Shown here in pieces: positions 12,524 through 50,721 of a stretch of DNA of 64,000 nt. The translations under genes and the position numbers were made by a program. Each line of letters begins with the position of its first letter. Positions within the stretch are counted from its first letter, which is position 1. The notes under the pieces were generated by a model, which saw nothing but the letters and a program-made list of their open reading frames with translations, was not told the origin of the DNA and made no database searches. The DNA is from a virus (taxonomy: Duplodnaviria > Caudoviricetes), in IMG/VR virus record IMGVR_UViG_3300033076_001145, positions 1-64,000 of that record, one strand, 5' to 3'.

Positions 12524-14815
12524 TTATAAACTGTCATTACAATCTTTTAGGGTTGCAAATGGTCCTCCGTTAATTGTTGAGTTAGTGTATGTGATTTCTA
12601 CACCTTCGATGTAGTATGTGGTCACATATGCACATCCGTTAAATCCTCCTGGTGTTGTTATTGAATATATTTCACCTTCTTGGAACGCTCCGCTTGGGTA
12701 ATTTATATTCTCAACTGCGAATTTATTAATTATTGATTTCGCAATCGAATATGATGTTGATGGGCTATTCGCAAATGTCGCAGTAAGGTCTCCCCATGTA
12801 TTACCTGAAAAATCTGTAAGAGTTATTGACAAATAATCATCTAACCCAATGGTCGTAACCGATGCACTTCCATATAAATTTGTAAATGGACCTCCGGTAT
12901 TTGTAAGTAATGCTTGGGTTCTAATTCTACTTGGTAAATCAGATATTGTATCCCCAGCCAAAATATTAACAGTCATAGTTATTAAGCTTGTATCATTGAC
13001 TTTATATCCACCAACAGTAAATGAACAATTCTGATAAAATGTGTCGGTTATAAAGAAATTTCTATTAACCGCAAAATTATTTGAAGTATTAACATACACA
13101 CTTGATGAAGGTATAAATACTGCTCTGGTTACCATCCTACTTGGAGTATTGGTCGGGGTATTTGACGGTTGGGGAGTTTGTGTTGAAGTTGATGTTGGTG
13201 TTGGAGTTGACTGTTTTGTTGGAGTAACTGTATTAGTTGGGGTATTTGTTGGGGTTTTGGTAACACTTGGAGTTGGGGTATTTGATGGGTTTGGAGTATT
13301 ACTTGGAGTTTTCGTTGGTGTGTTTGTTGGAGTTTCGCTTGGAGTAACGCTATTTGTTGGTGTATTCGTTGGAGTAAGTGTCTGAGTTACTGTTGGAGTA
13401 TTACTCGGTTGAGCGGTTTGAGTTGATGTTTTTGTTGGAGTGTTAGTCGGGGTGTTAGTTTGTGTTACCGTATTACTTGGGGTATTGGTTGGTGTTTGAG
13501 TATTTGTAACCGTTGGGGTATTTGACGGATTTATTGGTTCGTTTGTTGGTGTATTAGTTGGTGTGACGGTATTAGTCGGAGTGTTAGTAGGTGTGGTAGT
13601 GTTAGTAGGGGTATTTGTTGGTGTTGTGGTTGTTGTAACTGTTGGCGTGTTTGATGGGTTTGGAGTTTCTGAGTTTGTCGGAGTAATAGTATTTGTAGGA
13701 GTGTTTGTAGGAGTGTTTGTCGGTGTAATAGTGTTAGTGGGTGTTGGAGTATTGGTTGGGGTTTGGGTCGGGGTTGCACTATTAGTTGAGGTATTTGTTG
13801 GAGTACTGGTAATAGTAACTGTTGGGGTACTGGATGGTTGGACTGATTCAGTTAGTGTTGGGGTTATTGTCGGTGTAACAGTATTAGTGGGAGTATTGGT
13901 CGGTGTAATTGTATTGGTAGGAGTGTTAGTTGGTGTTACGGTATTAGTCGGAGTGTTAGTAATTGTAGGAGTATTAGTCGGAGTTGTAGTATTAGTCGGG
14001 GTCTGCGTCTTTGTCGGAGTGTTAGATGGATTTGGAGTTTCAGTAGATGTCGGAGTCGTAGTGTTTGTTGTCGTAATACTTGGAGTCAATGTATTAGTAA
14101 CCGTAATTGTCGGTGTTGGTGTGTTAGTTGGTGTTTCAGTATTTGTTGGTGTATTAGTTGGTGTAATTGTGTTGGTCGGAGTTTGAGTTTTTGTTGGAGT
14201 GTTAGATGGGTTTGGAGTGTTTGCCGGTGTTCCTGTTACAGTTTGAGTTGTAGTATTAGTGGGGGTGTTGGTTGGGGTAATAGTATTAGTCGGTGTATTA
14301 GTGGGAGTAACTGTATTAGTTGGGGTTTGTGTTGTCGTCGGTGTATTAGTCGGTGTAACGGTGTTAGTCGGGGTTTGAGTTCTTGTGGGGGTGTTAGATG
14401 GGTTTGGGGTTTCAGAATTTGTAGGTGTGATTGTGTTTGTCGGAGTATTTGTTGGCGTTACAGTAGGTGTGACTGTAGAAGTATTTGTGGGAGTATTTGT
14501 TGGTGTCTGAGTCGTAGTAGGAGTTTTGGTAGTTGTATTTGTAACAGTAATTGTTGGGGTAATACTTGGAGTTGGTGTTATGGTACTTGTAGGGGTCGGC
14601 GTTGGGGACTCACAACTAAATGCAACTGTTAGTGTTTGGTCAATACTTTGGAAATAAAAATTAAAATTACCATTATAACAAGTTTCATAGGTATAGGTAT
14701 ATGGAAAACTCAAATCAGACCCGATTAAAGTGTTGGACCCATCTGACGTATTGTAAAAAAACAAATCAAATGTATATGATTGAAAATTTTCCGAATTAAA
14801 AACTATACTAGCCAT
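12524..14815 (-). CDS. Mucin-like virion protein: ~68-aa N-domain, ~490-aa Thr/Pro tract, ~200-aa C-terminal globular domain
   Basis: 763-aa ORF dominated by TPTNT/TPTVT repeats; overlaps the upstream gene; no signal peptide apparent. Confidence 0.85.
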
Positions 14816-16718
14816 ATGTTATATCATTTACCAATCCAGAACAATCCGGACATCTTGTATCAAACAATAAAAATTTATTTTTTAAAACATTGAAATTATG
14901 AACCACTTCCGCATATGTTAATGGTTCGACATACATTCTAAATTGTGAAATTGCCCCGTCAAATGTTCCACCAAAAGTTGGTTCTAATAATATGTTGGTC
15001 GTTAATGCCGATAAAGATGTTCCTGACAGTATATTATTTGGCATACACTCAGGGTCTTGTTGGTAGGTTAGACCTGATAATGTCGTTGGACATCCTGATA
15101 ATGTTAGGTTCTCCCTAAGTCCCTGAGTTCCTCCACCCCAACTAATGTTAAATGGAACACCTAATTGCTTTTCCTTTTCCGTGTTTAGTCCTCTTGGAAT
15201 AATTTCTTCAAATCCATTTATAACAAAAAACAATCTTCCATTAATATAAATTTTTAATGAACCTAATCTATAATTTGTTTGAGATAACCATTTTTCATTA
15301 AGTTCAATAACCTCAATTTGTTCGGCAACTGTTCCTCCTGTATGTGTAAATGGTGGGGCAATTAATGATGTGGTATCATGAGATAAAGAATTAACATAAT
15401 ACTCGTTGGTTATTAATCCTAATCCACCTCTATAGTATAAATCACACTCATCAAAATATGAGTTTCTTTCCCAAACGCAATCAATCAAAAACCAATGTTC
15501 TTGATTTAAATAACTTGGATTAACTGTTTGACAGTATTGATTAATGGTATTTGTTGAGCAGTATTCTGTTATTGTATATCCTGTTGTATAAGTAATACCT
15601 GTCGTTGGACACGTCCCTGTTACCTCACATCCTCCTGTGAATTTTAATACTTTAACGCACACTTTAGGATTACTTGGGTCACCCGACAGTCGTATCGACA
15701 TTGAGTTTGATAGAGTATCTAATAATGGATTTTTATCACCATTTGCAACATTTGTGGTGTTATTACATCCACAATTACAAGAAGTATTATGTTGTTCGGT
15801 ATATACCAATGGTTCATACACCTCAACACATCTAGAATTAGTTACCGCACTATTTGAACATGAGCATGTTTTGAAACATTCTGAAAGTCCTGAAGTTACT
15901 CTTGTATAGCCTGAATCTGATAATGGGAACCCGTCAGCATGATGATAGTACTTATTTTCAGACCTTGTTCCAAAGTAGAAAAAGGTATTTCTATTCTCAG
16001 GATAAACTTCATTTAATGTTGTTTGATTTGGTAATGGATAAAACTCATCATCCAATCTTGGTTTTAATAACATTTCAGAAGTCCAACCTTTGTTAGTTCT
16101 ATTTGGAAAAACTTCGTAATCATATCCGTGTAATTTAAAAAATCCTTGGTGAAATCCTCCATATAGTTGATTGTAAATCCCTATCGTCGACCCTGTTTTT
16201 GTTACAATATTATATAATGTTTGTTTAGTATTACCTGAAAATCTATTATTGACACTCGTGTTACCTGTGACCGGAATAAATTTTAATCTTCTATCATAAT
16301 GATACCTATCCCATTTTGAATCACCTGTAAATAACCCCATTGTATAATATAGAGTTTCGCCTGAAATTTGAGTTGTTAGTCCGTTATCGATACCTGTTAA
16401 TCCAATATCACATAAAGAAGTTGCAGTATAACATGTTAAATCGTCATTATTTGGATTATAGTAATTTAAAGAAACTAATGTGTTTCCTGTATTATAGTCA
16501 CCGTAATTTAGACTGAACATTCTGGAACTACCCGAGTTATTTAAATCAAAGTGAATTGGTAATCTATTACCGTCATTAATACCAATAATTTGATTAGAAA
16601 AAACAACTTCTTCGTTATAATCCCTTTCATCCGACGCTAAGGAAATATCAAAAATTGGTTTATGTTGAGTGATAAACCATCTTTTATAGTTATATTGATT
16701 AATATTCTGTTGAGACAT
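14808..16718 (-). CDS. Cys-rich probable virion protein with a LamG/ConA-like C-terminal signature
   Basis: LKIYING...[18 protein letters not shown]; CSC and CNCGC clusters; TATTTAT upstream. Confidence 0.6.
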
Positions 16719-16724
16719 TTATTG

Positions 16725-16752
16725 ATAAATATAACTTTTCAAAGTATTTATA
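16725..16752. promoter_or_regulatory. Back-to-back TATTTAT motifs serving divergent genes
   Basis: ataaata at 16725-16731 (minus gene starting 16718) and tatttata at 16745-16752 (plus gene starting 16765). Confidence 0.65.
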
Positions 16753-16764
16753 AAATAAAACTCA

Positions 16765-17643
16765 ATGGAATTTAGAAAAGAATATTTTTATAGGCCGTAT
16801 TACTTTTATTTAACTGAAAGTAATGAGGAAATTTCTTTGTATTTTTCATATTCAGAAACATTAACTGAGTCTAGAAAAAATGACGAGGTTGTAAAGTTCA
16901 ATAAGAAAGACAAACCTGAATTAGAAAAAGAAATCAAAGATATTTTTAAATCCAAAAAAGAAAAATCAACTAAAGATATTAAAAGTAGATTAAACAAAAA
17001 GAAAAAAGAATTGGAAGAATTAGTGGATGCTAATGGTAGTTTTAAGGACTCTAGTATTCCGATTTTAAATCCAAAACTTTCACCAAAAGGGACTACTGAC
17101 CAAGAGGTGGTTCAAAATATGCAACCAGGAAATCCTCTTTGGAGAGGTTATAGAGTATATTGGGGTGAGAGTGAGGACAAAGAAGGTGAAGTTGTTTCTG
17201 AAATTGATTTATCGGGTTCTTTTGGGTTCGATGAGACTGAAGACTTGTCAGGTCCCGAGACTTATAAAACGTATGTTGATGAACTTGGTATGGAACCTGA
17301 GGATGCTAAAAAAAGAACAATCCAACAAGGTAAGACACCAAGTAAAAAGAAACACAAAGAACGTTTAAAAAATGTTCCTAAAAAAATTAAGGATGACCCC
17401 AACTTTATCGATAGAATGACTTTAGTAGAAAAAGAAAAAATTGAGGAAGAAAGAAAACAAAAAATGCTACAAATGGTTGAGGATATGTTAGTAAAAGACA
17501 AGACGGATGACCATGAAGTGAGTAGAAAGTCAAAAAATGTTAGTTCATTAATATATAAAAATTTATCGTCAATAAAAAAGTTGGCAAATAGAGAAGGAAT
17601 ATCAATAAATGATTTAGTTAAAATATTAAAAAAAGGTGAATAG
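16765..17643 (+). CDS. Hypothetical charged protein, possibly head-internal
   Basis: 292-aa K/E-rich ORF with LTE/LEE motifs. Confidence 0.7.
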   Translation: MEFRKEYFYRPYYFYLTESNEEISLYFSYSETLTESRKNDEVVKFNKKDKPELEKEIKDIFKSKKEKSTKDIKSRLNKKKKELEELVDANGSFKDSSIPILNPKLSPKGTTDQEVVQNMQPGNPLWRGYRVYWGESEDKEGEVVSEIDLSGSFGFDETEDLSGPETYKTYVDELGMEPEDAKKRTIQQGKTPSKKKHKERLKNVPKKIKDDPNFIDRMTLVEKEKIEEERKQKMLQMVEDMLVKDKTDDHEVSRKSKNVSSLIYKNLSSIKKLANREGISINDLVKILKKGE

Positions 17644-18085: not shown

Positions 18086-18089
18086 GATT

Positions 18090-18380: not shown

Positions 18381-18386
18381 TCCGAA

Positions 18387-19378: not shown

Positions 19379-19390
19379 TCTAAACTATTA

Positions 19391-19419
19391 TTGAATTAAC
19401 TGTAATTTTCATTTATAAT
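19391..19419 (+). promoter_or_regulatory. Sigma70-like promoter TTGAAT-N17-TATAAT
   Basis: Intergenic, upstream of the GT4/exonuclease/dUTPase operon; AT-rich background lowers confidence. Confidence 0.4.
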
Positions 19420-19437
19420 TGTTGAATAGTAACAATT

Positions 19438-20652
19438 ATGAAAGAAAAAATTAAAGTTTTAGTCGTACCTTCAGACCGTACAGGTGTTGGTAAATTTAGG
19501 TCAGTCGACCCTCACATTTTCTTACAAAATCTATACCCTGATGAATTTCATGTTGATATTGTTTATGATATTGACTTTAATGATATTAATTTTTGGAAAC
19601 AATATCCTATAGTTCATTTTCATAGAAGTATTGGACAGGATATGGATAAGTCTGTAGATGTAATCAATTATTTAAACTCACAAGGAATAATCACAATTTG
19701 TGATATTGATGATTATTGGTTACCTGGTAAAGAACATCCTCTACACCAATTAATTATTCAGAATAAAATTCATGAAAAAATTATTGCAAACATTAAAGCT
19801 GCGAAATATGTAACAACAACTACAACACTTTACGCAGATGAGATTAAGAAATACAATCCAAATGTTTTCATTTTCCCAAACGCAATTGACCCAAATGAAT
19901 CTCAATTCAAAGAACCGACACCTGAGTCTGACCGATTAAGAATTGGTTGGTTAGGTGGTTCGTCTCACTTACATGATTTAATGTTGTTAGATGGGATGGT
20001 CGCAAAATTAAACGACAGAAAAAATAAGTTGCAATTTGTATTATGTGGGTTTGATACTCGAGGTAGTATTACCGAAATCAATCAACAAACAGGGGAACAA
20101 AAACAACGTCCAATCAAACCCCATGAAAGTGTATGGTATGACTATGAGAAAATCTTCACAAACAACTACTCAATAATTGATAATGATTATAAGGACTTTT
20201 TACATAAGTTTGAAAACGCTCCATATGAGAACGAAATGGATAAAAACTATTTAAGAGTTTGGACAAAACCTGTTACGTCATACGCAAAAAACTACTCAAA
20301 GTTTGACGTATCAATTGCACCAATTAAACACCACACATTTAATAAAGTTAAATCTCAATTAAAAGTTATTGAGGCAGGTTTTTATAAGAAAGCATTAATT
20401 GCTTCAAACTATGGACCATACACCATTGATTTGACTCATTGTTTGAAAAATGGTAACTTTGTTGATGGTAATGCTTTATTGGTTGATGAGCAAAGAAATC
20501 ATTCCGATTGGGCAAAATACATTAAAAAATTATCAGACAACCCGAACATGGTAAAAGACATGGGAGAGAGATTATATGAACACGTATCTAAATTATATGA
20601 TTTGCGTGTTGTAACAAAAAACAGAGCAGAATTTTATAAATCAATTTTATGA
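19438..20652 (+). CDS. GT4-family glycosyltransferase
   Basis: DIDDYW, IGWLGGSSHLHDL, FNKVKSQLKVIEAG. Confidence 0.85.
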   Translation: MKEKIKVLVVPSDRTGVGKFRSVDPHIFLQNLYPDEFHVDIVYDIDFNDINFWKQYPIVHFHRSIGQDMDKSVDVINYLNSQGIITICDIDDYWLPGKEHPLHQLIIQNKIHEKIIANIKAAKYVTTTTTLYADEIKKYNPNVFIFPNAIDPNESQFKEPTPESDRLRIGWLGGSSHLHDLMLLDGMVAKLNDRKNKLQFVLCGFDTRGSITEINQQTGEQKQRPIKPHESVWYDYEKIFTNNYSIIDNDYKDFLHKFENAPYENEMDKNYLRVWTKPVTSYAKNYSKFDVSIAPIKHHTFNKVKSQLKVIEAGFYKKALIASNYGPYTIDLTHCLKNGNFVDGNALLVDEQRNHSDWAKYIKKLSDNPNMVKDMGERLYEHVSKLYDLRVVTKNRAEFYKSIL

Positions 20653-21347: not shown

Positions 21348-21928
21348 AAGATGAATTTATGTCAGCAATAGATAAGGTAATCCCTAATCTATCTAAAGAC
21401 CCTAACTACGGGGACATGTATAACAAAATTAAAGAAAATCTAGGGTTAGATTTAGAGCAGTTAGAAAGAGATATGGAAAACGCTTCAAATGACAAAGTTA
21501 TTTTGCGTTATACATCATCAACGGGAAAAAACTTAGTTTATAATTATGATTCTGATAGTGGATTTGATTTGTATTCATCAGAAGAAGTAGTTATTCCTTC
21601 ATTAGGAAGAGCTCTTGTCCCAACAGGAGTTAATTTTCAAATACCAAAAGATTTTGAAATTCAAATCAGACCAAAAAGTGGTTTGGCTCTAAATTACGGA
21701 CTGACTGTGTTAAATACTCCCGGTACAATTGACGAGGGATATACAGGAGAAGTTAAAGTAATTGTTTTTAACACAAGTTCAGAACCAGTAACAATAACCA
21801 AAGGAATGAAAATTGCCCAAGCAGTTGTTGCAAGATGTATCACAGGTAGATGGGTAATATTAGAAAAGTCCGAAAAAATAAAAAGTGGAGACAGAGGGGA
21901 TAATGGGTTTGGAAGTACTGGGATATGA
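21344..21928 (+). CDS. dut: Trimeric dUTPase with N-terminal extension
   Basis: SGFDL, RPKSG, GTIDEGYTGE, IAQ, RGDNGFGSTG. Confidence 0.95.
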   Translation: MKDEFMSAIDKVIPNLSKDPNYGDMYNKIKENLGLDLEQLERDMENASNDKVILRYTSSTGKNLVYNYDSDSGFDLYSSEEVVIPSLGRALVPTGVNFQIPKDFEIQIRPKSGLALNYGLTVLNTPGTIDEGYTGEVKVIVFNTSSEPVTITKGMKIAQAVVARCITGRWVILEKSEKIKSGDRGDNGFGSTGI

Positions 21929-23313
21929 TAACAATTGGGTATAGTACTAAAACATCAAAACCTGACTTTAAGAATTATTTAATTTCAACTTGTGGGGTTA
22001 AAGATTGTGAGGTAATTGAAAAAGTTAATCCTGGAACTAAATCTTTGACTCAGGTTTATAACGAAATACTTAGTGAATCGTCTAATGATGTTTTAATTTT
22101 ATGTCATGACGATATTTTATTTGAAAAATCATATTGGGGTAAAAGAATTTTAGAACATTTTAATAAGAATTCTGATTATGGAATATTAGGTGTTGCAGGA
22201 ACAACTTACTACCCATCAAATGGTATGTGGTGGGAAATACAAGGTGAGATGGTAGGACAAGTATATCACCAGCATCAGGGTAAAAAATGGTTATCCGAAT
22301 ATAACAAACCATTTGGTGGTAAAATTATAGACACTGTTATTGTTGATGGTTTATTTATTGCGGTAAAAAAATCTAATATAAAATCTAATTTTAATGAATC
22401 TGTAAATGGGTTTCATTTTTATGATACAACTTTCTGTATTGAGAATTTTTTACAAGATGTTAAAATTGGAACCATTTCAAACGTTCCAATAACCCATTTA
22501 TCAATTGGAATGACAAATGAACAATGGGAAAAAAATAGAATAGAATTTGTTGAGAGATTCAAAAGTAATTTACCTATTAAATTAAAATCAAATTACCCAA
22601 TTTTAAAAATTAATGAGAAAATACCGTTAGTTTCAGTAATAATTCCAATTTATAATTACGGTGTTCAATTTGAAAAATCAATACAGTCAGTATTTGACTC
22701 ATCATATAAAAACTTTGAAGTGGTAATTGTTGATGACGGTTCATCAAATGAATATGTTAAATTAAAATTGGATAGTTTATCAGAGCATCCAAATATTAAA
22801 GTTATTCGTCAAAACAACTCAGGCCCATCCTCGGCAAGAAATAACGGAATTAAAAATTCCTCAGGCCAATTTATACTACCTTTAGATGCCGATGATATGA
22901 TTCACCCTGATTATATTCAAAGTTGTGTTAATATTCTTAAAAATAATAAAAACATTAGTCCTGTATATTGTGATACTAATCATATTGGGCAATTACAAGG
23001 TGTTGAACAAAGACCTGAGTGGTCAATGGAAAGATTAATGCAAGGACCATTTATTGTTAATTGTTCGATGTTTAGTAGAGAGTCTTTTGAAAAATGCGGT
23101 GGTTATGATGAATCATTAAAGGGCTGGGAGGATTATGACCTATGGATTAGAATGGGTATTAATGGGTATATTGGTAAGAGAATCCCAAAACCTCTATTTG
23201 TATATTTTCACCATGAAAATGATGGGACAGTATCTACAGAGGCTAATAAAAACCAACAAGAATTATATAATAAAATAATGAATAAAAATTTTAAAAATGA
23301 AAATATTAGTTAA
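21925..23313 (+). CDS. Two-domain GT2-family glycosyltransferase
   Basis: CHDDI, DGLF, FHFYD; then VSVIIP, VDDGS, ARNNG, LDADD, EDYDLW. Confidence 0.9.
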   Translation: MITIGYSTKTSKPDFKNYLISTCGVKDCEVIEKVNPGTKSLTQVYNEILSESSNDVLILCHDDILFEKSYWGKRILEHFNKNSDYGILGVAGTTYYPSNGMWWEIQGEMVGQVYHQHQGKKWLSEYNKPFGGKIIDTVIVDGLFIAVKKSNIKSNFNESVNGFHFYDTTFCIENFLQDVKIGTISNVPITHLSIGMTNEQWEKNRIEFVERFKSNLPIKLKSNYPILKINEKIPLVSVIIPIYNYGVQFEKSIQSVFDSSYKNFEVVIVDDGSSNEYVKLKLDSLSEHPNIKVIRQNNSGPSSARNNGIKNSSGQFILPLDADDMIHPDYIQSCVNILKNNKNISPVYCDTNHIGQLQGVEQRPEWSMERLMQGPFIVNCSMFSRESFEKCGGYDESLKGWEDYDLWIRMGINGYIGKRIPKPLFVYFHHENDGTVSTEANKNQQELYNKIMNKNFKNENIS

Positions 23314-25469: not shown

Positions 25470-25474
25470 TTAAT

Positions 25475-26233: not shown

Positions 26234-26234
26234 T

Positions 26235-39824: not shown

Positions 39825-41804
39825 ATGTCTTTAGATTTAAACGAAAGTTTTAATAGTGCAAATAAAAAAATAAAATCTTTTAATACTTACAAAGATTCCA
39901 GAAATGAAATCAAAAAACGTATTAAAGGGGCTAGTAGTGATGTTAAAGACGCAACTAACGATATAAAAAACTCGGTTGCGGTTAATAAGGGTGAATCGTT
40001 TTCTTACGCTAAGAATGAGGCAATGAATCAGTTGGATAGACTGATTAATATGTACACTAATTCTCAACAACCAGGACAAGCAACAATTTCTTTTATTTTA
40101 TCTAAATTTGTCAAATCATTTAAAATTCTAAAACCACAACTAAAGGATATTTTTATTAGTTGTATTTTAGAAAAGTTAAATTGTGATTATGAGTCTGAAT
40201 ATGTAATCGGGGATGATGACCCAACAAATCCTGATGGGAACTCAATACACGTTAGAGTTAAAGGATTTGATTTTCAACAAATTCTAAAGATTGAACCCAC
40301 ATCTCGTGCCGGTAAAGTGAAATATGAAAAAGTCCCATTTAATACAACACAAATAAATTCATCCCCTAAAAGTACTAATTATCTATTATGGAATTTATTA
40401 CAAAACAAAGATGTTTGGATGAGTTCATTATATAATGGAGTTTATAAAGGCACAAGTAACCAAAATTTATTTGATATTCGTTATGTTGATAACATTGACG
40501 GTCAAACTTTTGATGACTTTTTTGAGATAAAATTTAAGAAACCGATAAACGCTCAGGGTCAATATCAGAACAAAGGAAAGGTTTTTGATTTTTTAAAAAA
40601 TTATTACAACACTATTGATGTGTTTGATGTTAGGTTTTTCTTCAATGCTTTAATGGACAACCAATTTAATATATTAGACATTGATTTAAAATATGGTCAA
40701 AAAACCTTAACGGATAAAACTAAATTTGGATTGTTTGTTCAAAGGATGTTGGGTCAATGTTATGACAACGATGTTGAAATTTCAGTTGCGGGAAACTCAA
40801 AACTACCTGAATTAGATGACACATCCAATCGTTTTTTTGAATTAACTTTTAACCAAGAAATTTTTATTGAAGCCAAGAATGCAATAATAAGAAAACAAGT
40901 TGCAGTTTTTGAAAATTGTGATAAAGTGGAACTTCCAATTAGTGATGAACAATTGGATTATATGTACGCATTAAATGAATCTGTTACGGAAACTAATATT
41001 GAAAATTATCTTACCAACACGATTATTACAACTCTATCAACAGACCCCTCATGGTCTTTAACTTTCCCATACCCTAACAGATTAAAAATCTCATTTTTAA
41101 AACGAATAGTATCCGAGTTTCCACTTTCAGTTACAATGTCAGTAATGGGTCCAAAACAAATATTACCTTTATTTGTAATGTTAAAGGCACTTAACGTAAA
41201 TTTTCCTGAATTTCAAATCAATAGTCGAGTTGATTTTATGGTTAATTTTAGAAAATTTTTCGAATGTATTTCATCGAGTATTATGAGTCATTTCATTAAA
41301 ATATTATTTAATGAAATTAAAAAGGATTTGAAAAATTTAGTAAGAGTTTTATATATCGATATCTCAGGTGACGCTACCGCATCTATTTACATTATTGTTG
41401 AGAAATTAGTTACCATTACGTTAATTATTGCGGCATTAATTAAAGATTATAAAAGATGTAAAAGTATAATTGACGGTATTTTGGCTTTATTGAATTTAGC
41501 GAAAAACGCCGCCTCAAATTTTATACCTGCACCATTATTACTATTAAGTGATTTACTACCGGGGTTCTCACCAACAAGGGCGTTTATAAATCATATTGAG
41601 AACATGGAAAGTTTAGGATTACCTACCGGACCAGGTCCTGACGGTAGTCCGAATTTAGAACTAATGAAAGACTTCTCAATTATGAGTGCATTTCATAAAG
41701 AAATGATTGAAAATGGTAAAGTGTCAGGTGCATTTACGTTAAAAAACATTAACCCAACTGGAGGGGTTCCGGCAATTGTAACTGTAGGTGGTAAATTTCA
41801 TTAA
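39825..41804 (+). CDS. Hypothetical protein, probably structural (baseplate region)
   Basis: 659-aa ORF in a late operon upstream of the spike-like gene. Confidence 0.6.
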   Translation: MSLDLNESFNSANKKIKSFNTYKDSRNEIKKRIKGASSDVKDATNDIKNSVAVNKGESFSYAKNEAMNQLDRLINMYTNSQQPGQATISFILSKFVKSFKILKPQLKDIFISCILEKLNCDYESEYVIGDDDPTNPDGNSIHVRVKGFDFQQILKIEPTSRAGKVKYEKVPFNTTQINSSPKSTNYLLWNLLQNKDVWMSSLYNGVYKGTSNQNLFDIRYVDNIDGQTFDDFFEIKFKKPINAQGQYQNKGKVFDFLKNYYNTIDVFDVRFFFNALMDNQFNILDIDLKYGQKTLTDKTKFGLFVQRMLGQCYDNDVEISVAGNSKLPELDDTSNRFFELTFNQEIFIEAKNAIIRKQVAVFENCDKVELPISDEQLDYMYALNESVTETNIENYLTNTIITTLSTDPSWSLTFPYPNRLKISFLKRIVSEFPLSVTMSVMGPKQILPLFVMLKALNVNFPEFQINSRVDFMVNFRKFFECISSSIMSHFIKILFNEIKKDLKNLVRVLYIDISGDATASIYIIVEKLVTITLIIAALIKDYKRCKSIIDGILALLNLAKNAASNFIPAPLLLLSDLLPGFSPTRAFINHIENMESLGLPTGPGPDGSPNLELMKDFSIMSAFHKEMIENGKVSGAFTLKNINPTGGVPAIVTVGGKFH

Positions 41805-41807
41805 ATC

Positions 41808-42011
41808 ATGGATAATAATATTATAAAAGAAACTATTTCAGATTATAAGAATAAATCTAATAAAGATTTAGAATACACCTTAAATGGATTAAGTTTAGAA
41901 TTTGAGGAGACAAAAAAATTAATCATTAAATTATCTAAACATTTAGATAATGTCGAATCAAATTATAATAATATTTTAAGGGAATACAAAAACAGAACAG
42001 GTAATGGATAA
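41808..42011 (+). CDS. Small coiled-coil hypothetical protein
   Basis: 67-aa ORF. Confidence 0.6.
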   Translation: MDNNIIKETISDYKNKSNKDLEYTLNGLSLEFEETKKLIIKLSKHLDNVESNYNNILREYKNRTGNG

Positions 42012-43590
42012 AAGAATAATATATACTGGTAAGGTAAAACATATCCAAGATATTTTTGTCACAGGTTTAATTCGAATTATACCTGAAGACGCAGAGGATA
42101 TACAATCATTATTGAATGATTTTTTTAAAAGGTCGGGTCTGACGGAAAAACAATTTTTCAGTGATGATAAAAGAGACATAAATCCAAAACTTTATTACAC
42201 TAAAAACGACCCCTTTGTTTTTCAACAGTTCGGAACAACATCTTTAAGTTTTCAACCTGCGGTGAATGACCTTTGTTTATTAATTTATACCGACAAAGAA
42301 AATAATTCAGGAAGAAAAAATCAATATTATATTCCAGCACCAAAACACTCTATCTTCAATGTCGAATCTGAAAACTATAATAAAACCAAAGGAACACTAG
42401 CCGAGGGTATTAACTATAGTTCAAGAACTCCTTTAAAAAATGTTAATGGTGAATATAACAATAAAAAATATTCAGGATGTTTCGCAGAGCCTGAGGATAA
42501 CGCAATTTACGGTAAAGGAACCACAAATATCATTCTAAAAAAGAACGATATATTAGTTAGAGCTGGTAGTTGTTTAGACGTTTCAAATCCAAAATTTGAT
42601 GGTTTAAACAAAAAGATGGGATTCTTACAAGTGTCACACTTTGATGGGAACAAAATTAAAATAAAAGATAATGTTGTTGAGAATTCATTACCTGACACAA
42701 CTCCAATTGCGAAGATTGTCGAATATGACATAACTTCAGGGTTAGAAGATGGTGAGGATTTATATAATGGAAGTGTTAAAATATATAATGTTCCCCCACT
42801 AAAGGAACTTGCTCAAAATTTATTTGGATTTTTAACACCAATACCCGAACAAGTTAAAGTCCCAATTAAAGAATACACATTTACAGGTCTTCCAGCTTCA
42901 GGGGCTTCTGATTTTGTTAATACTATTTTACAAGGTCTTAATGATGGTAAAATTGAAATTGGAGGGACAACTTATACTCCAACTGAACCAATATTTCCGT
43001 TTTTTTATAGACCCGCAATAAATTTAAGAGGTATATTATCATCACTTGCAAATCCAACAAGTAATCCTTTGGATTTTTTGAAAAAGGCAAATACCATTTC
43101 AATATATAATGATATTAAACTTAGTGGTTCTCTTAATATATCAGGGTTTGGTTTAGTTAGAAGTAAGAATAAGTTTGGTCCTGGCACAAAAAAAGTTAAG
43201 GAACAGAATCCTGCTCATAAGTATGATAATAAACCAACAAGTTCAACTATTGTTGGTAGTAATTACATTTATTTATTGAGTTATAACTCTAAATTACCTG
43301 ACCAAAAAGATGCAATTAAATTAAAACGAGAAGACTATTACGGAATATCTTCGGATACGATTGTTGATGAGATACACCCAAAGACTCAATCAATGGTGAG
43401 AGGTGAGAGTTTAAAAGACTTATTAGACATGATTGTTTTTTATTTAATTAACCATTCTCATCCGTTTTCAATGATGCCCCCATACAATGAGGCTCAAAAT
43501 GAAAATTCCCAACTAACTAAATCGGATATCCAATCAGAACTAGCTCAATTCAATAGTAAGGTTTTGAATACAAATATTCGAATTAATTGA
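42004..43590 (+). CDS. Probable baseplate central spike (gp5/gpV-like)
   Basis: N-terminal OB-like P...D.CLLI segment; C-terminal MVRGESL..LL.....NHSHP with an HxH tip motif. Confidence 0.5.
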   Translation: MDKRIIYTGKVKHIQDIFVTGLIRIIPEDAEDIQSLLNDFFKRSGLTEKQFFSDDKRDINPKLYYTKNDPFVFQQFGTTSLSFQPAVNDLCLLIYTDKENNSGRKNQYYIPAPKHSIFNVESENYNKTKGTLAEGINYSSRTPLKNVNGEYNNKKYSGCFAEPEDNAIYGKGTTNIILKKNDILVRAGSCLDVSNPKFDGLNKKMGFLQVSHFDGNKIKIKDNVVENSLPDTTPIAKIVEYDITSGLEDGEDLYNGSVKIYNVPPLKELAQNLFGFLTPIPEQVKVPIKEYTFTGLPASGASDFVNTILQGLNDGKIEIGGTTYTPTEPIFPFFYRPAINLRGILSSLANPTSNPLDFLKKANTISIYNDIKLSGSLNISGFGLVRSKNKFGPGTKKVKEQNPAHKYDNKPTSSTIVGSNYIYLLSYNSKLPDQKDAIKLKREDYYGISSDTIVDEIHPKTQSMVRGESLKDLLDMIVFYLINHSHPFSMMPPYNEAQNENSQLTKSDIQSELAQFNSKVLNTNIRIN

Positions 43591-43610
43591 TATTTATCTA
43601 ATAAAAGATA

Positions 43611-45119
43611 ATGTCAGTACATTTTTCGTATTTTAAAAAGAACAATACAATACTATATAATAGTTTTACTAACACTGGTAGAGCCCCATATACTCAATTG
43701 TATTTTGGTTCATATAACGATGGGATATCCTCACCAGGGTATAGTCGTTTTATTTTTGACTTAGACCTAACCGACTTAATTGACAAATATACAGGAACCA
43801 CAATTTCCACAGCTTGTACTCAAACACCAATGAGACACATCCTTAAAATGACCAATACTTCGTCATTTGATGATTCATTATTAAACAGTGAAACCTCAGA
43901 TGGTAGGTTGAGAGCAACATCATTTGATTTATTTTTATTTAGATTACCAAAAACTTCTGGTGACACTGGGACATATCAAAATTGGGATGAAGGAGTTGGT
44001 TCGGATTATTATGACGTTAAAAAAACAATTAATTCTTCTAACTCATTACTTACCCCAGTATTATTACCTGATAATAAAAGTTTTTCTCAAAGACCTTCCA
44101 ATTGGTATCACGCAACAACTATATCAGGATGGTCTCAAACAGGTATCTACTCCAATACAAATTCAGGGTTAGTAAATTATAGTGGATTAACAATCATTGA
44201 TACTCAACATTTCCAATTTGGTAATGAGAACATTGAGTTTGATATGACAAATGAAATTAACTCAATTCTTAACGGAACATTGACAGGTGTTACAGGGTGG
44301 GGAATTGCTTATCATCCTGATTTAGAAACAATGTCGGGATTAACGGCAAACTATTCTGTCGGGTTCTTTACAAGACATACTCAAACATTCTACGAACCAA
44401 AATTAGAAACAGTATATGATGATTACGTTAATGATAATAGAAATAATTTTTCTCAATATAAAGAAAATAAATTATATCTATACTCATATATCAATGGGGA
44501 ATTAACAAACTTAGATTCTCCTCCCATTTTTTCACTATTAGATAGTAATAATAACTTTGTTAATTTTGGTAATGGGGTAACTGAATTATCAACTTGTTTG
44601 AGGACAAAAGGAATCTACGAGGTAACAATACCGGCTTTAAGTGCTTCAGCTCCTTGTACATTCTACGATGTTTGGAGACCAATAAATTATAACGGAGTTC
44701 AATTACCTGAGATTGTTAATTCTGTAATTATGTATCCGTTTGAATCTTATTTTGATTTAGGATTTAAAAGTAAAACTCCGTCAATTTATGGGTTTGATTT
44801 TTATGGTCTAAAACAAGATGAAAAGATTGTTAATAACGACCTTAGAAAGGTTGGGGTTTCAATAAAGAAAGCGTATTCAACACAAGAAATCTTAAATGAT
44901 GTTTCGGCATATTATCGAGTATATGTTAAAGAAGGGACAACTGAAGTTGATGTTCAGGATTGGACTAAAATTAGTAAATCATCAAACGAATACTTCTTTT
45001 TCTTTGACACAAGAGACAAAATACCCAATGAGTATTTTATCGATTTAAAAGTTTTAAGTTCAGGAGAAGTTAATACATATAAACAACAAATAAGATTTCA
45101 AATAGTAAATCAAAAATGA
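43611..45119 (+). CDS. Probable virion structural protein
   Basis: 502 aa, S/T/G-rich; SRFIFD, WDEGVG, FFTRHT..FYEPKLE; TATTTAT at 43591. Confidence 0.6.
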   Translation: MSVHFSYFKKNNTILYNSFTNTGRAPYTQLYFGSYNDGISSPGYSRFIFDLDLTDLIDKYTGTTISTACTQTPMRHILKMTNTSSFDDSLLNSETSDGRLRATSFDLFLFRLPKTSGDTGTYQNWDEGVGSDYYDVKKTINSSNSLLTPVLLPDNKSFSQRPSNWYHATTISGWSQTGIYSNTNSGLVNYSGLTIIDTQHFQFGNENIEFDMTNEINSILNGTLTGVTGWGIAYHPDLETMSGLTANYSVGFFTRHTQTFYEPKLETVYDDYVNDNRNNFSQYKENKLYLYSYINGELTNLDSPPIFSLLDSNNNFVNFGNGVTELSTCLRTKGIYEVTIPALSASAPCTFYDVWRPINYNGVQLPEIVNSVIMYPFESYFDLGFKSKTPSIYGFDFYGLKQDEKIVNNDLRKVGVSIKKAYSTQEILNDVSAYYRVYVKEGTTEVDVQDWTKISKSSNEYFFFFDTRDKIPNEYFIDLKVLSSGEVNTYKQQIRFQIVNQK

Positions 45120-46292: not shown

Positions 46293-46337
46293 TTTTTTTA
46301 GTTTATCTTTCTATTGTTTATCCATATATTTATATGT

Positions 46338-46826
46338 ATGGATAAACAAAAAAAATGTAAAGTTTGTAACCTTGTAAAATCAGAAGATGAATTTTACAAA
46401 TCACAAAGGGGTTTGAAATGTAAGACCTGTGTATTAGAAATTACAAGAAAATATAAAAGAAATAAAAGAAAAGATATAGAATTCAGATTAAATGAAAGTG
46501 TCAAACAAAAAGAAAGGAGAGTTCGTCTGTGGCAAAATACTTTAATTCACGATTCAAAGTATAGAGGTGTTGAAAATACTTTAACGGTTAATGATATTAA
46601 TGAAATGTTTGAAAATCAAAATGGATTATGTTATTGGTTCAAAGTCCCATTAATACCGTCAAACAATAAAAAACACCCACAACAACCATCTTTAGATAGA
46701 ATTGATAGAAATAAAGGTTATACAAAAGATAATGTCGTTTTATCTTGTTACTCCGCAAATATTGGTAGAAATGAAACTGATATTGATGAGTGGGAAAAAT
46801 TTTTAAAAATATTGTTAGTTCAATAG
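46338..46826 (+). CDS. HNH-type homing endonuclease
   Basis: CKVC...CKTC zinc finger; GLCY...SLDRIDRNKGYTKDNVVLSC..AN; likely ATG at 46338 after TATTTATA. Confidence 0.85.
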   Translation: MDKQKKCKVCNLVKSEDEFYKSQRGLKCKTCVLEITRKYKRNKRKDIEFRLNESVKQKERRVRLWQNTLIHDSKYRGVENTLTVNDINEMFENQNGLCYWFKVPLIPSNNKKHPQQPSLDRIDRNKGYTKDNVVLSCYSANIGRNETDIDEWEKFLKILLVQ

Positions 46827-46842
46827 TTTTACCATATCTTTG
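46812..46842 (+). promoter_or_regulatory. Bacteroidota-type promoter TTG-N20-TATCTTTG
   Basis: Matches the TAnnTTTG -7 element; precedes the ATG at 46863. Confidence 0.4.
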
Positions 46843-46862
46843 TGAATATATTCATTAATGAT

Positions 46863-47279
46863 ATGAACCCCCTGAAAAAACAATACTACAAACTTAGAAT
46901 CTTATTAAGAAATAATTTTTCTAGACCTGACCATGTTATCGAACAAAAGAAATATGAGTCATTATGTGTCAATGTTGCAAAGTCCCTAATAAAGGACAAA
47001 AATTCAATATTGGTCTATACCCCTAAAAGTTTCAAATACTATATTAAAAACCAAAATCATGGTGTTTATATGGTTATCTGTGATGCAGTTCTTTCAGTCA
47101 CAAACCACAAGTACTCCTACGAAATCAAATTAACCCCAAAAAACGAACGAAAACTAATTAATGTATTCGAGAACGAATTAGAAAAAAGAGGTGAAATTTA
47201 CGACACAGAAATGATTTTACAAATAAAAGATTCATTAACTGATATTTATAATAAAATAATAAGTGATGAACAACAGTGA
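46863..47279 (+). CDS. Hypothetical protein
   Basis: ORF 46842..47279 with likely ATG at 46863. Confidence 0.7.
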   Translation: MNPLKKQYYKLRILLRNNFSRPDHVIEQKKYESLCVNVAKSLIKDKNSILVYTPKSFKYYIKNQNHGVYMVICDAVLSVTNHKYSYEIKLTPKNERKLINVFENELEKRGEIYDTEMILQIKDSLTDIYNKIISDEQQ

Positions 47280-47457
47280 ATTAAAAAAAACAATTAGAAA
47301 ACATCTATTGGAAGGTTTTGCAAAATACTCTAAATTTGAAAGAGCTATGATAATCCAAGATGTTTTGGATAGAGTTGGCCAATATGAGGATGAGTATGTA
47401 AATGCTTTAAGAGAATTCAACTCTAACTTCCCATCAACAATGTATAAAAGAGATTAA
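47266..47457 (+). CDS. Small hypothetical protein (IRKHLLE motif)
   Basis: Preceded by TATTTATA at 47243-47250. Confidence 0.55.
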   Translation: MNNSELKKTIRKHLLEGFAKYSKFERAMIIQDVLDRVGQYEDEYVNALREFNSNFPSTMYKRD

Positions 47458-47846
47458 TCAAAAATCTCTTTTTCTTTTTTCTTATTTTTTTTAATAAAAA
47501 GTTTTGTAACTTCTCCAGACTTCGCGTTTGCAAAATTTTCGGATTCCCCTCCAATATCCTTTCTATCTTTAATATTTAATTTTTCATGGTCATACGCATG
47601 AGCCCACTCGTGTGACAGAGTTCTTAATACATCCGCAAACATTCTCCCCTTAAATAAAATACGAATTCTGTCTTTACCATTATTATATGAACCTGTAGTC
47701 ATGTCTTTAGTTTTTTCGTCTAATAACATTATTTTTAAATCATTCTCTAATGGCATTTTAGTTTGTAATAATTTACAAAATTTTTTTAAAAGTTCGAGTT
47801 GAGTTTTTTTAACCGTATTTTTTTTATATTTAAAACAAATTTTCAT
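47454..47846 (-). CDS. Zincin-like metallopeptidase
   Basis: LRTLSHEWAH (HExxH) followed by E..AN. Confidence 0.7.
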   Translation of the reverse strand: MKICFKYKKNTVKKTQLELLKKFCKLLQTKMPLENDLKIMLLDEKTKDMTTGSYNNGKDRIRILFKGRMFADVLRTLSHEWAHAYDHEKLNIKDRKDIGGESENFANAKSGEVTKLFIKKNKKKEKEIFD

Positions 47847-48540
47847 TTAAAGTCGATAATATTTTTTTTATCAAAATCTCTTCATTAGTCTTTTTCTTTT
47901 TGTAAGAAACCATTTTAGGCTTATTACCTGTACCACTCTTAGGATTGGTTTTTTCAGCTCTTCTTTTTTGAGCACAAGCGGCCTTTTTTTGAGAATCGGT
48001 CATTTTACCTGCAACTCCCGCAGCTCTACATTTAGGATAACCTTTATCTTTTGCTTCAGGTCTTCCACAAGGTGGATGTTTTCCATCTACTTTTCTACAA
48101 ATATTAACCCATGGACCTTTAGGTTGCTTACTACCCTTAGGTTTCTTTTTAGTTCCAAACCATACTCCTAAATCTTCATTAACAAATGGTTTAGATGCAT
48201 CTTTAATTTTTAAAGAATTACCATTATTTAATATATCCCCATCATCATCGTTTTGTATAGGGTGTTTTGACATGTAGTTACTAATTTTTTCAGATTTTTT
48301 CTCCATTTTTTTAATTTTATTTTTTGGAGTATCCATACTTCCATCATAACTATCATAAGCCAATTCCGAGTTATCATATTTTGATACTGGTTCATTGAAT
48401 GGGGATAACTGTGACTTTTTAAATTTTCTAAATCCCGGCATTATTGGAGCACTATAAGAACCTCTTCCTGCGGAGTCCGCAGTCGACTCATTTACAGGAC
48501 TAAATACCTTATTGATTATCTCATTAATATTTCTTATCAT
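47830..48540 (-). CDS. Basic hypothetical probable head-internal protein
   Basis: VNES/VNED/LNEN motifs; WF...WVNIC...CGR...YPKCR module. Confidence 0.65.
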   Translation of the reverse strand: MIRNINEIINKVFSPVNESTADSAGRGSYSAPIMPGFRKFKKSQLSPFNEPVSKYDNSELAYDSYDGSMDTPKNKIKKMEKKSEKISNYMSKHPIQNDDDGDILNNGNSLKIKDASKPFVNEDLGVWFGTKKKPKGSKQPKGPWVNICRKVDGKHPPCGRPEAKDKGYPKCRAAGVAGKMTDSQKKAACAQKRRAEKTNPKSGTGNKPKMVSYKKKKTNEEILIKKILSTLNENLF

Positions 48541-48560
48541 ATTAATAAATATTTGAAACT

Positions 48561-48806
48561 ATGGAACAAGACGGATTACTAAATCAAATACAAGAAAAAG
48601 TTAAAGAAATTACACCTGAAAAAAATGTATTTAATGCAATTTTTTATAATACTGATTCAGAATTAGACATGTTCATTATGAACTTAAATAATGAACAGGC
48701 CCTTTTTTGTTTAATTGAGGCTTGTAAAAAATCATATGAACGAGGTACATTTAATATGATTGAAAGTGAGATAGTTTCAAAATCAATCAGAATATTGGAA
48801 AAATAA
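48561..48806 (+). CDS. Hypothetical protein
   Basis: 81-aa ORF ending at the bidirectional terminator. Confidence 0.65.
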   Translation: MEQDGLLNQIQEKVKEITPEKNVFNAIFYNTDSELDMFIMNLNNEQALFCLIEACKKSYERGTFNMIESEIVSKSIRILEK

Positions 48807-48832
48807 AAAAGGTCAGATTTCTCTGACCTTTT
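48805..48832. terminator. Bidirectional Rho-independent terminator
   Basis: aaaaggtcaga-tttc-tctgacctttt (GAAA loop on the minus strand), between convergent genes and downstream of the major capsid gene. Confidence 0.9.
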
Positions 48833-48852
48833 AATATTAACATTAAGATATA

Positions 48853-50721
48853 TTATCTTAACTCGTTTAAGTCGAATGTACGTACTCCATCAACTGTGAT
48901 ACGTCCGAAGAAACGGTTGTTAACCATCTTCTTAGCGTAACGTGTCATGATACCTTTGATAGGTGTGAAGTTGAATGGGTTGTACATAGTTGGTGTTAAT
49001 TGTAATGGTACGTATGGAGCGTAGATGTAACCAGTATCCAACAAAGAAGTACCTTTGTGACCAATCAAGATAGTGTTTGGTGGGAAGTATGGGTCACGAT
49101 ACACTTGGTAACGTCCACTCAATGTTCCAACTCTTTCAATACCCATGTTATATTGGTCTTGCTCAGGAGCTGCGTTTGATACGTGGAAGTATTGTAAATC
49201 ATCAAAAATCGCAGAGATTTCAGAAGATACAACAATCCAGTTAGCACCACCTCTCAAAGTAGACTTGTGGATTTGAGCTGAGATTTGGTTAATCGCAGTA
49301 ATCAAAGTTTGGTTCCAGTCTTTTTGAGTGTATGGAGTTGCTTGGTTATTCAGTCTCTTCCATCCGTTGTAATCCCAACGTAATGTCCAAGCCGCACCTT
49401 TACGTAAGTCACGTAAGATTTCACGGTCAATTTCAGCCGCAACTTGCTCTGACAATAATGCTGTCAATTCAGCTTCAGCATCGATGTTGTGGAATGCCGC
49501 AACGTCTTGAGCCAATTCAGGAGACCATTGTGCTCTTAACTTTCTTTCAGTTACAGAAACTGTTACTGACTCTAAGTTGAAAGAAACTTCACCAATTTTG
49601 TCTTCGAATTCTAATTCTTCATAACGTCTCCAAGCCGCTGTAATATTAGTAGTACCTGACCATACAGAGTTGGTTAATGTTGCTCCTGAATAACCGTCAG
49701 GTGTTGATTGAGAACATGCAATACATGCAGGAACTTGTGTGTCAATCTCTAAATAAATTACTCCCGCCGCATTACAAATGTTATAAAAACTACCACCATT
49801 ACCGTCAGTTGGATATGTAGTTTTTGTTTGAGTTCCGTAATCAACAATACCGCTACCGTATTTTTGAGTAACAACACGATAAAGTAGTGGAGTCGCAGTA
49901 GAAGTTCCTAAATTAGTCGCAGCTGCTGAAACATTTGTAAATAACACTAAATTAGACAAAAATGATTCAGTATCCATTTCTTGACCATCAGGACCTATTA
50001 ATTTTCCGTCCCCAACTGTGGTAAATCCAGATAAACCAACAATGATTTTTCTAAATTCTTTAGTTCCACTAGCGGCTTCACCATTTACAGTATAACCTGA
50101 AACAATCAAATTACCATTACTCCAAGCAACTGTTTGAGTAAGTGCGGTCATTACTGTAAATCTTCCTTTAGAATAATCAAATAAACCAGCAGGATTTAAT
50201 CCAGGTTCAGTACCTTCATAGAACAAATCGTAAAGATTTTTAGCATATGGAGTACCAACATTTGACCCAGGATAACCAGCATTTGCATCTCCACCATAAT
50301 TCCCTGGAGAACCTTGTGGTGCGAAATGGTCACCTGAATTAGTATTTCCTCCGGGATATAGAGCGTTTGTTGAAGCTCCAGTATATCCTTGGATTTGAGG
50401 TACGAAGTAGAACAATTTACCGATTGGTAAGTTCATAGCTTGTACAGAAACGATGTCATTCGCTAACAATTTAGAGAATACACGTCTGATGATTGGGAAT
50501 ACAACAGTTTCAAATGAACCTGAATCCGCAGTTGATGATGACTCGTTGATTAAGTGAGAAGCTTGGTTCTCATACAACTGTGCAACATTTTCTTTTAGGT
50601 GGCCTCTAAGACCTTCTAGGAACCCTAATTTGTCCCATTTGCTTATAGTGTCTTCTTTGATAACTTTAAGGTGCTTAAGACCGATGTTACCAACTAATCC
50701 ACTTTCTAATAATGCTCCCAT
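48853..50721 (-). CDS. gp23: Major capsid protein, T4 gp23-like
   Basis: IRRVF...SVQAM..P.G, RKLRAQWSPELAQD..A.H.IDAEAEL, EIDREI, YAPYVPL, GIMTRY. Confidence 0.97.
   Translation of the reverse strand: MGALLESGLVGNIGLKHLKVIKEDTISKWDKLGFLEGLRGHLKENVAQLYENQASHLINESSSTADSGSFETVVFPIIRRVFSKLLANDIVSVQAMNLPIGKLFYFVPQIQGYTGASTNALYPGGNTNSGDHFAPQGSPGNYGGDANAGYPGSNVGTPYAKNLYDLFYEGTEPGLNPAGLFDYSKGRFTVMTALTQTVAWSNGNLIVSGYTVNGEAASGTKEFRKIIVGLSGFTTVGDGKLIGPDGQEMDTESFLSNLVLFTNVSAAATNLGTSTATPLLYRVVTQKYGSGIVDYGTQTKTTYPTDGNGGSFYNICNAAGVIYLEIDTQVPACIACSQSTPDGYSGATLTNSVWSGTTNITAAWRRYEELEFEDKIGEVSFNLESVTVSVTERKLRAQWSPELAQDVAAFHNIDAEAELTALLSEQVAAEIDREILRDLRKGAAWTLRWDYNGWKRLNNQATPYTQKDWNQTLITAINQISAQIHKSTLRGGANWIVVSSEISAIFDDLQYFHVSNAAPEQDQYNMGIERVGTLSGRYQVYRDPYFPPNTILIGHKGTSLLDTGYIYAPYVPLQLTPTMYNPFNFTPIKGIMTRYAKKMVNNRFFGRITVDGVRTFDLNELR

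Follow-up and report, generated by a model that had tools for sequence, protein, structure and literature searches.

The motif [ST]-G-x-[ST] is concentrated in a 636-amino-acid (aa) protein encoded in the first 64 kb (hereafter, the window) of a 208.6-kb IMG/VR phage contig (~71% complete, ~32% G+C). Selection acts on it at the peptide level in many surface-type proteins that are unrelated to one another and encoded by the same genomes, but not in the orthologs of these proteins from a sister clade. The observation is real and strong for the family of the 636-aa protein and for the fiber proteins of the clade, and weak for the capsid. The best available reading is that the motif is a glycosylation sequon, a prediction to which we assign a probability of about 0.45. 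The phage is T4-like, with a Gp23-family capsid protein, a Gp20 portal, and a T4-type large terminase. The window encodes three motif carriers:

14808..16718, minus strand: 636-aa Cys-rich protein (P0001), the main motif carrier, with 14 copies and a concanavalin-A/LamG-like jelly-roll core
43611..45119, plus strand: 502-aa protein (P0002), with six motif copies; the only lead is a weak CBM96 match
48853..50721, minus strand: T4-type major capsid protein (MCP) of the Gp23 family (Pfam Gp23, 2e-73), with five motif copies

Expected motif numbers were obtained from shuffled sequences, with Poisson p values and correction for multiple testing over 313 open reading frames (ORFs); pairs such as 14/1.8 denote observed/expected copies. 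The 636-aa protein contains 14 sites (residues 62, 77, 119, 131, 151, 161, 175, 269, 276, 373, 379, 460, 548, and 565) against a shuffled mean of 1.78 (z = 9.5, Poisson p = 6e-9), an excess that is significant after the correction; the initial annotation of this DNA had put the expectation at about two. The six sites of the 502-aa protein (residues 61, 116, 172, 191, 225, and 242; 6 vs 1.2, p about 0.001) and the five of the MCP (residues 114, 208, 231, 345, and 355; 5 vs 1.45, p about 0.013) are not significant alone after the same correction. The copy numbers and tetrapeptides that had been listed for the three proteins were all exact, and the enrichment over shuffled controls that had been set as a check holds. 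The MCP sites lie, as described, within residues ~113-360 (at 114-355) and leave the conserved C-terminal part motif-free; terminase, portal, and the GT60-type glycosyltransferase (GT) likewise contain no sites (0 each), as had been noticed. The whole ORF set includes 56 motif copies against 55-57 expected, 25 of which fall within the 636-aa, 502-aa, and capsid proteins. Considering that the genome-wide total is at expectation, the motif is concentrated in a few proteins and not generally frequent.

Four of the five permuted arrangements tested, [ST].G[ST], G[ST].[ST], [ST][ST].G, and G.[ST][ST], showed no enrichment, and the fifth, [ST].[ST]G, was mildly raised (5 vs 1.7 in the 636-aa protein and 6 vs 1.2 in the 502-aa protein). 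When each of the 20 residues was tried at the position after the first hydroxyl in the 636-aa protein, only Gly (14 vs 1.8) and Ala (3 vs 0.3) were enriched, which bears out the earlier remark that [S/T]-A-x-[S/T] variants occur.

The excess recurs among relatives of all three proteins. The 120 close homologs of the 636-aa protein carry on average 11.8 copies vs 2.0 expected, and seven sites stay motif in 81-100% of these homologs, with S/T and G/A swaps. Across 148 representatives of this family (one per 50%-identity cluster, down to ~30% identity), 1285 copies were found vs 279 expected (4.6-fold), together with 343 vs 103 copies of the Ala variant. The mean is 6.1 vs 1.18 expected (range 1-12) in 29 relatives of the 502-aa protein and 4.07 vs 1.32 expected in 71 capsid relatives. 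The MCP and 502-aa families have a few fixed sites and many that turn over, with copy number kept. One fixed site is MCP residue 345, which is part of a motif in all 71 close relatives and reads I-G in two of the genomes introduced below, G009 and G001.

For comparison, we used four complete, related, motif-rich genomes (G002, G003, G006, and G009) and one motif-poor genome, G001, a syntenic but distant relative (244.8 kb, capsid 53% identical); L084 is a second contig from the G001 lineage. A further record, G010 (L187-L196), looks like an error-rich assembly: homologs of conserved genes are split by frameshifts and in-frame stops (for example, at 50827-51883), the median ORF is 95 aa, and gene-content calls are unreliable. 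Because of these broken genes, G010 was given little weight as an independent motif-rich lineage. The orthologs of the 502-aa protein score 10/1.3 in G002, 7/1.1 in G009, and 0/0.3 in the motif-poor G001.

At a per-protein cut-off of p<1e-4, we found 33 significantly enriched proteins, comprising 11 homology groups, in G000, G002, G003, G006, and G009. Collagen-like fibers and a leucine-rich repeat (LRR) protein were discounted because tandem repeats generate the motif there, which leaves approximately nine unrelated enriched families, several of them bearing tail-fiber marks (Peptidase_S74, phage tail repeat). The remaining proteins of at least 150 aa in these five genomes are at 1.16-fold. 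The 899-aa LRR protein (L134:14075-16774, G003) consists of 'fdgTGLSGLTsLdLtdNqLtef' units, and its motif count is a by-product of the repeat. The collagen-like group corresponds to three consecutive fiber genes of 1300-1600 aa that form one homology group (L198:14687-18634 and neighbors; G006 30629-43677); the fiber that was scanned (G006 34687-38634) contains collagen triple-helix repeats and a C-terminal Peptidase_S74 chaperone domain. The triplet pattern G.[ST]G.[ST] holds for these three fibers and is absent from the 636-aa and 502-aa proteins, in which, unlike in BclA-type collagen G-x-T glycoproteins, the motif does not come from Gly-X-Y triplets. Among 503 motif instances, hydrophobic residues occupy positions -3 and -1, Thr prevails over Ser at position 0 and is followed by Gly, x can be any residue with Leu and Ala favored, and position +3 is Thr in 75%.

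The G001 genome contains 71 copies vs 74 expected overall and zero enriched proteins, and its orthologs of the 636-aa, 502-aa, and capsid proteins score 1/0.6, 0/0.3, and 1/1.0, respectively. On L084, a motif-free homolog of the 636-aa protein is followed by four large fiber-type genes, none of them enriched. Longer motif-free contigs were sought in IMG/VR for P0156, P0241, P0252, and P0263 and in metagenomes for P0156, and only G001 was usable; P0156 is a motif-free relative on a 4.3-kb contig, and its nearest relatives (53% identity) are motif-rich. The structural proteins of T4, pooled, contain 32 copies vs 25.5 expected, and the T4 fibers are flat (gp34, 1/3.3; gp12, 1/2.0; gp37, 8/4.2).

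Several features of the sites point to the peptide as the object of selection. At motif positions of the 636-aa alignment, motif-poor members carry E, D, S, T, or N at position 0 and have Gly at position 1 in only 25%. The motif Gly is less conserved than other Gly residues (0.75 vs 0.82, 0.52 vs 0.87, and 0.76 vs 0.86), and in the MCP family S/T exchange at retained motif hydroxyls is four times as frequent as at other Ser/Thr residues. Assessed as a purely structural beta-turn, the motif lies at strand-turn junctions, as such a turn would, but its Gly does not behave as a conserved backbone Gly. A DNA-level word was ruled out by codon usage, both Ser codon families and all Thr and Gly codons being used at motif sites. 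Avoidance of deamidation-prone Asn-Gly was rejected as well: N-G is not the usual state in motif-poor homologs, and Gly is present in only 25%. Thus, the polar loops in motif-poor lineages, the lower conservation of the Gly, its replacement by Ala, and the lack of a DNA word argue for selection on the peptide motif, in agreement with its absence from sister-clade orthologs. Considering that a small residue and two hydroxyls are selected at polar, variable loop positions of many unrelated proteins, a common trans-acting reader, rather than a backbone requirement, is probably behind this selection.

The motif does not coincide with the familiar sequons: D-[ST], N-x-[ST], and S-G-x-G are not enriched in any of the three carriers. 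The proposed distinctness from the Bacteroidota D-[S/T] sequon stands (D-[ST]-[AILVMT] at 2 vs 1.8, 1 vs 2.2, and 1 vs 1.7). The suggested analogy to eukaryotic Ser-Gly attachment sites does not: SG.G is found 0 times in the three proteins, position +3 is Thr, and acidic flanks are lacking (at most 1.5-fold).

AlphaFold2 (AF2) modeling of the 636-aa protein from a 92-sequence alignment yielded a model with a predicted local distance difference test score (pLDDT) of 86.7 and a predicted template modeling score of 0.88; a model from 30 close homologs (pLDDT 38) was not used. Of its 14 motifs, 11 map to coil segments that adjoin strands or helices; of the remaining three, one extends across a hairpin turn, another belongs to a strand, and the third is an N-terminal helix cap. 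A Foldseek comparison of the model with the PDB returned only weak matches, namely, lectin-like jelly-roll receptor-binding domains, a pilus lectin module, and a cyanophage tailspike, and the Atlas lead was Laminin_G_3. Pfam and PHROG have no family for the 636-aa or the 502-aa protein, and no homolog of the former was found in the cultured-phage collection. In relatives, the gene of the 636-aa family adjoins Peptidase_S74 and Fib_succ_major fiber genes, and the protein is probably a fiber-module or receptor-binding virion protein. The 502-aa protein had been taken for a baseplate protein, an assignment that found no support in any family match. The carriers resemble lectin-type or carbohydrate-binding proteins; all three are devoid of Thr/Pro tracts, of a signal peptide, and of membrane segments, and Ser and Thr together make up 18-20% of their residues. 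All five MCP motifs lie inside a lineage-specific insertion (residues about 100-360) that is absent from T4 gp23. The 636-aa protein also contains approximately 20 Cys residues clustered in insertions of the jelly roll, which is unusual for a protein made in the cytoplasm, and has 0 Ser-Pro/Thr-Pro dipeptides vs 4.7 expected.

The window encodes at least 12 GT-like genes along with enzymes of GDP-sugar, aminosugar, and UDP-galactofuranose metabolism. This set comprises GT60, UDP-galactopyranose mutase, GT_PLOD, GT10, an HtrL-like protein, and several GT2 and GT1-like proteins, as well as PIG-L, FkbM and other methyltransferases, GNAT, DegT, GDP-mannose dehydratase, and an epimerase. The majority of these genes are unique to this genome; the encoded sugar enzymes have zero membrane segments, and no flippase or polymerase was found among them. 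Three conserved loci are relevant to the search for a reader of the motif:

19438..20652, plus strand: 404-aa GT-B, GT4-like (PHROG 7162 'glycosyltransferase', 1.8e-42), a candidate modifying enzyme
21925..23313, plus strand: 462-aa two-domain GT-A (Pfam Glyco_tranf_2_5 and GT2; hereafter, double GT-A), a candidate elongating or polymerizing enzyme
36826..39439, plus strand: conserved trio of GT1-like, GT2, and 248-aa genes (Pfam)

The GT-B, which bears the JGI name 'glycosyltransferase involved in cell wall biosynthesis' and matches Pfam GT1 below threshold, has a counterpart of 48-68% identity in each motif-rich locus that extends far enough and none in the motif-poor G001 and L084, where the adjoining dUTPase gene is kept. 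The best solved relatives of the double GT-A are chondroitin synthase K4CP (1.8e-32) and heparosan synthase, enzymes that polymerize glycosaminoglycan-type chains. It is found in G002, G003, G006, and G009, with fragments in G010, and is conserved in the clade beside a dUTPase/dCTP-deaminase-like gene; in G001, only a GT2 match of 30% identity over 118 aa was detected, and the syntenic block is missing. In all motif-rich loci whose flanks are long enough (>40 loci), both genes are found 3-9 kb away from the 636-aa gene, and both are missing at the syntenic spot in the two motif-poor loci. As to the proposed check on relatives that lack GTs, the motif is absent from the sister genome without the neighboring GT-B and double GT-A. 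The trio was rejected as a reader because it is also present in the motif-poor G001 (orthologs 32-37% identical) and shows no correlation with the motif. The GT-B is 64-68% identical where the 636-aa-family protein is only 47-55% identical to that of the window; with at least 8000 homologs in the protein collection (all scored candidates), it is among the most conserved genes of this phage group.

A GT60 cassette and two Thr/Pro-rich proteins occupy the adjacent part of the window:

11226..12473, minus strand: homolog of GT60-type polypeptide GlcNAc-transferase (PF11397, 1.6e-67)
3177..4853, minus strand: HtrL-like double glycosyltransferase, the GT60 partner in a conserved cassette (PF09612, 3.5e-17)
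12524..14815, minus strand: 763-aa Thr/Pro-rich mucin-like protein, a non-carrier (1 motif copy vs 3.7 expected)
3..2795, minus strand: mucin-like Thr/Pro-rich protein, at least 931 aa and cut off by the window edge, a non-carrier (1 motif copy vs 3.3 expected)

The cassette is conserved in G002, G003, G005, G006, and G007, and HtrL is absent from G008, G009, G010, and G001. At first, GT60 and HtrL fitted the role of the reader, as G000, G002, G003, and G005 carry the cassette and G001 does not. This candidate was rejected: both genes are lacking in G009, which is motif-rich and 96% complete, and in the likewise motif-rich, error-ridden G010, and the pair is absent within 10 kb of 30 of 30 further motif-rich loci. 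GT60 instead tracks Thr/Pro tracts (≥80 aa, ≥60% T+P), which are present in 4 of 4 GT60-positive genomes (the phage of this window, G002, G003, and G006) and in 0 of 3 GT60-negative ones (G009, G010, and G001). This putative enzyme-substrate co-occurrence is cleaner than any for the tetrapeptide motif. Independence of the motif from the GT60 pathway, as postulated by the initial annotation, is thereby borne out, in agreement with its idea of two separate pathways. Given the strong GT60 homolog next to Thr/Pro-rich proteins, protein O-glycosylation by this phage is plausible in general.

If the motif is indeed a sequon, [ST]-[G>A]-x-[T>S], as a rule with a hydrophobic residue in front of it and located at the end of a beta-strand, would serve as a recognition tag on exposed loops of the outer virion proteins of the clade. 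The most likely reader would be a soluble phage-encoded GT acting in the host cytoplasm, either ahead of assembly or in the course of it, and attaching an O-glycan to one of the two hydroxyls; the outcome would be a glycan coat on fibers and other outer proteins. We infer that the selecting agent is an enzyme, that this enzyme is a GT, and that the candidates for its identity are the GT-B (19438-20652) and the double GT-A (21925-23313). A more detailed joint scenario, unlikely as a whole, is that phi-[S/T]-[G/A]-x-T at strand ends (phi, hydrophobic residue) is the O-glycosylation sequon of this large freshwater clade of uncultured jumbo phages, which the GT-B would read and the chondroitin/heparosan-synthase-like double GT-A would extend, producing glycan-coated fibers and outer proteins in parallel to, and independently of, a GT60 pathway acting on Thr/Pro stalks.

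Several observations weigh against the sequon. T4 gp23 (3/0.62) and gp24 (3/0.49) show a nominal excess like that of the MCP analyzed here, so that the capsid part of the finding is not distinctive; we know of no reported glycosylation of gp23 or gp24. Together with the weak excess of the MCP in G002 and G009, this undermines the capsid as a real target, and of the proposed enrichment in structural proteins there remains the concentration in probable surface proteins. T4 gp23 and gp24 (L212:34946-38607) also share [ST]-G-[MI]-T at the same aligned position just past the conserved core, which shows that the [ST]-G-x-[ST] tetrapeptide may be conserved in a capsid protein without known glycosylation. 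Furthermore, the seven sites of the 636-aa protein that are positionally conserved in more than 100 homologs also fit a structural role; phi-x-phi-T-G-x-T is plausible as a beta-hairpin motif; and part of the fiber signal comes from duplicated modules and tandem repeats (LRR 'TGLSGLT', collagen G-x-T, and 'SGGTvTGxT', the last presumably akin to a widespread tail-fiber repeat). A structural explanation therefore stays in play, given that the sites lie at strand ends, that half of them are conserved in position, and that fiber modules are duplicated. As for the enzymes, the link to the motif comes from one phylogenetic contrast, G001 and L084 being members of the same clade. The GT-B adjoins the dUTPase/dCTP-deaminase-like gene and an exonuclease and, being beside nucleotide-metabolism genes, could equally be a DNA-modifying enzyme; the GT-B glucosyltransferases of T4 modify DNA.

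A somewhat unlikely alternative is that nothing is attached to the motif and that it is a structural or assembly element, a strand-to-turn unit (two-residue hairpin or ST-turn with beta-branched Thr flanks) spread by module duplication and shared ancestry. Besides the conserved positions, the duplicated modules and repeats, and the aligned [ST]G[MI]T of T4 gp23 and gp24, this explanation accounts for the beta-strand flank pattern with hydrophobic residues at -3 and -1 and for the location of the modeled sites at strand ends and hairpin turns; the related pattern [ND]G.[ST] is 1.4-fold above expectation in G001, a generic turn signal. It fits poorly with the same-fold orthologs in G001 and L084 that lack the motif, with a Gly that occurs at only 25% of the equivalent positions of poor members, is less conserved than other Gly residues, and is often replaced by Ala, with the parallel enrichment in approximately nine unrelated families of the same genomes, and with the lack of enrichment in T4 fibers. 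The lineage-wide, multi-family pattern needs a common cause and does not identify it, so that the motif could also be a tag for another trans-acting partner, be it an enzyme of phosphorylation, sulfation, or acylation, a phage chaperone or cement protein, or an aid to the binding of host polysaccharides. In favor of such a partner, the carriers have a lectin-type or carbohydrate-binding appearance, and a Sulfotransfer_1/3 gene (L140:10972-11760) lies just downstream of motif-rich fiber genes, including a Peptidase_S74 fiber. We nevertheless consider such a partner decidedly unlikely: among the compared genomes, co-variation with the motif was not observed for any kinase, sulfotransferase, or acyltransferase, the sulfotransferase is present in one contig only, and GTs are by far the commonest modifying enzymes here. 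An artefact of composition and selection, whereby three proteins were picked post hoc and local Ser/Thr/Gly-rich segments inflate the counts, would explain why the 502-aa protein and the MCP fail the 313-ORF correction and why the genome-wide total equals expectation. It is very improbable given the p value of 6e-9 for the 636-aa protein, the mostly unenriched same-composition permutations, and the reproduction of the excess in hundreds of homologs and in other genomes; for the 636-aa family it can be regarded as largely refuted, and only for the MCP may it still apply.

The closest known system to a sequon-directed glycosylation of this kind is the O-glycosylation of mycobacteriophage virions. 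In Che8, Corndog, and Myrna, virion O-glycans were chemically shown on the C-terminal parts of capsid and tail-tube subunits (PMC12619734, citing Freeman et al. 2023, Cell Host Microbe). In both systems, soluble phage-encoded GTs are proposed to decorate the structural proteins of the phage in the cytoplasm, and the phage studied here encodes such enzymes (GT60, GT10, GT_PLOD, HtrL, GT2, GT1-like, and GT-B). It differs in having a dispersed four-residue motif in fiber-type loops, known from sequence alone, and an MCP that, unlike the mycobacteriophage subunits, lacks a Ser/Thr-rich C-terminal tail and carries its motifs at 114-355 in an internal insertion. To our knowledge, mycobacteriophages are the only phages cited as having virions proven chemically to be glycosylated by enzymes of the phage, and their acceptor sites have not been reduced to a sequon. 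A targeted literature search yielded no paper describing the present motif, which is weak evidence of absence.

Other systems share single features with the predicted one. The general O-glycosylation system of Bacteroidota is periplasmic and uses the sequon D-[S/T]-[A/I/L/V/M/T], which is likewise short and Ser/Thr-centered and belongs to the presumed host phylum; here, D-[ST]-[AILVMT] is not enriched, and the carriers have no signal peptide. The autotransporter heptosyltransferases Aah and TibC are cytoplasmic GT-B O-glycosyltransferases that read a beta-strand/short-loop/beta-strand acceptor on AIDA-type repeats. Their acceptor resembles the strand-end loop context on a beta-rich surface protein seen here, but the heptosyltransferase family is a different one, and no search for Aah or TibC homologs was made. 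Protist GT60 enzymes initiate mucin-type O-GlcNAc glycosylation on Thr-rich tracts in Trypanosoma cruzi (pp-alpha-GlcNAcT; PMC3769586) and Dictyostelium. In contrast to that system, the motif is independent of GT60, the Thr/Pro proteins are motif-poor, and the carriers are not Thr/Pro-rich. In chlorovirus PBCV-1, virus-encoded cytoplasmic machinery modifies Vp54 at atypical sequons on the outer capsid face, and this modification is N-linked and chemically proven (PMC9614988). The non-canonical short sequon is shared with the present prediction; the eukaryotic virus, the N-linkage, and the weak capsid evidence in our case set the two apart.

If the motif is structural instead, it would be a reusable signature of the surface domains of this clade and a caution against sequon-hunting by motif counts alone. 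If it is a glycosylation sequon, it would represent the first report of a short sequon in the glycosylation of phage virions, would make glycan-coated phages and their target proteins predictable from metagenome sequence, and would provide a simple tag for glyco-engineering of phage particles. It would also explain the abundance of soluble glycosyltransferases in lake jumbo phages.

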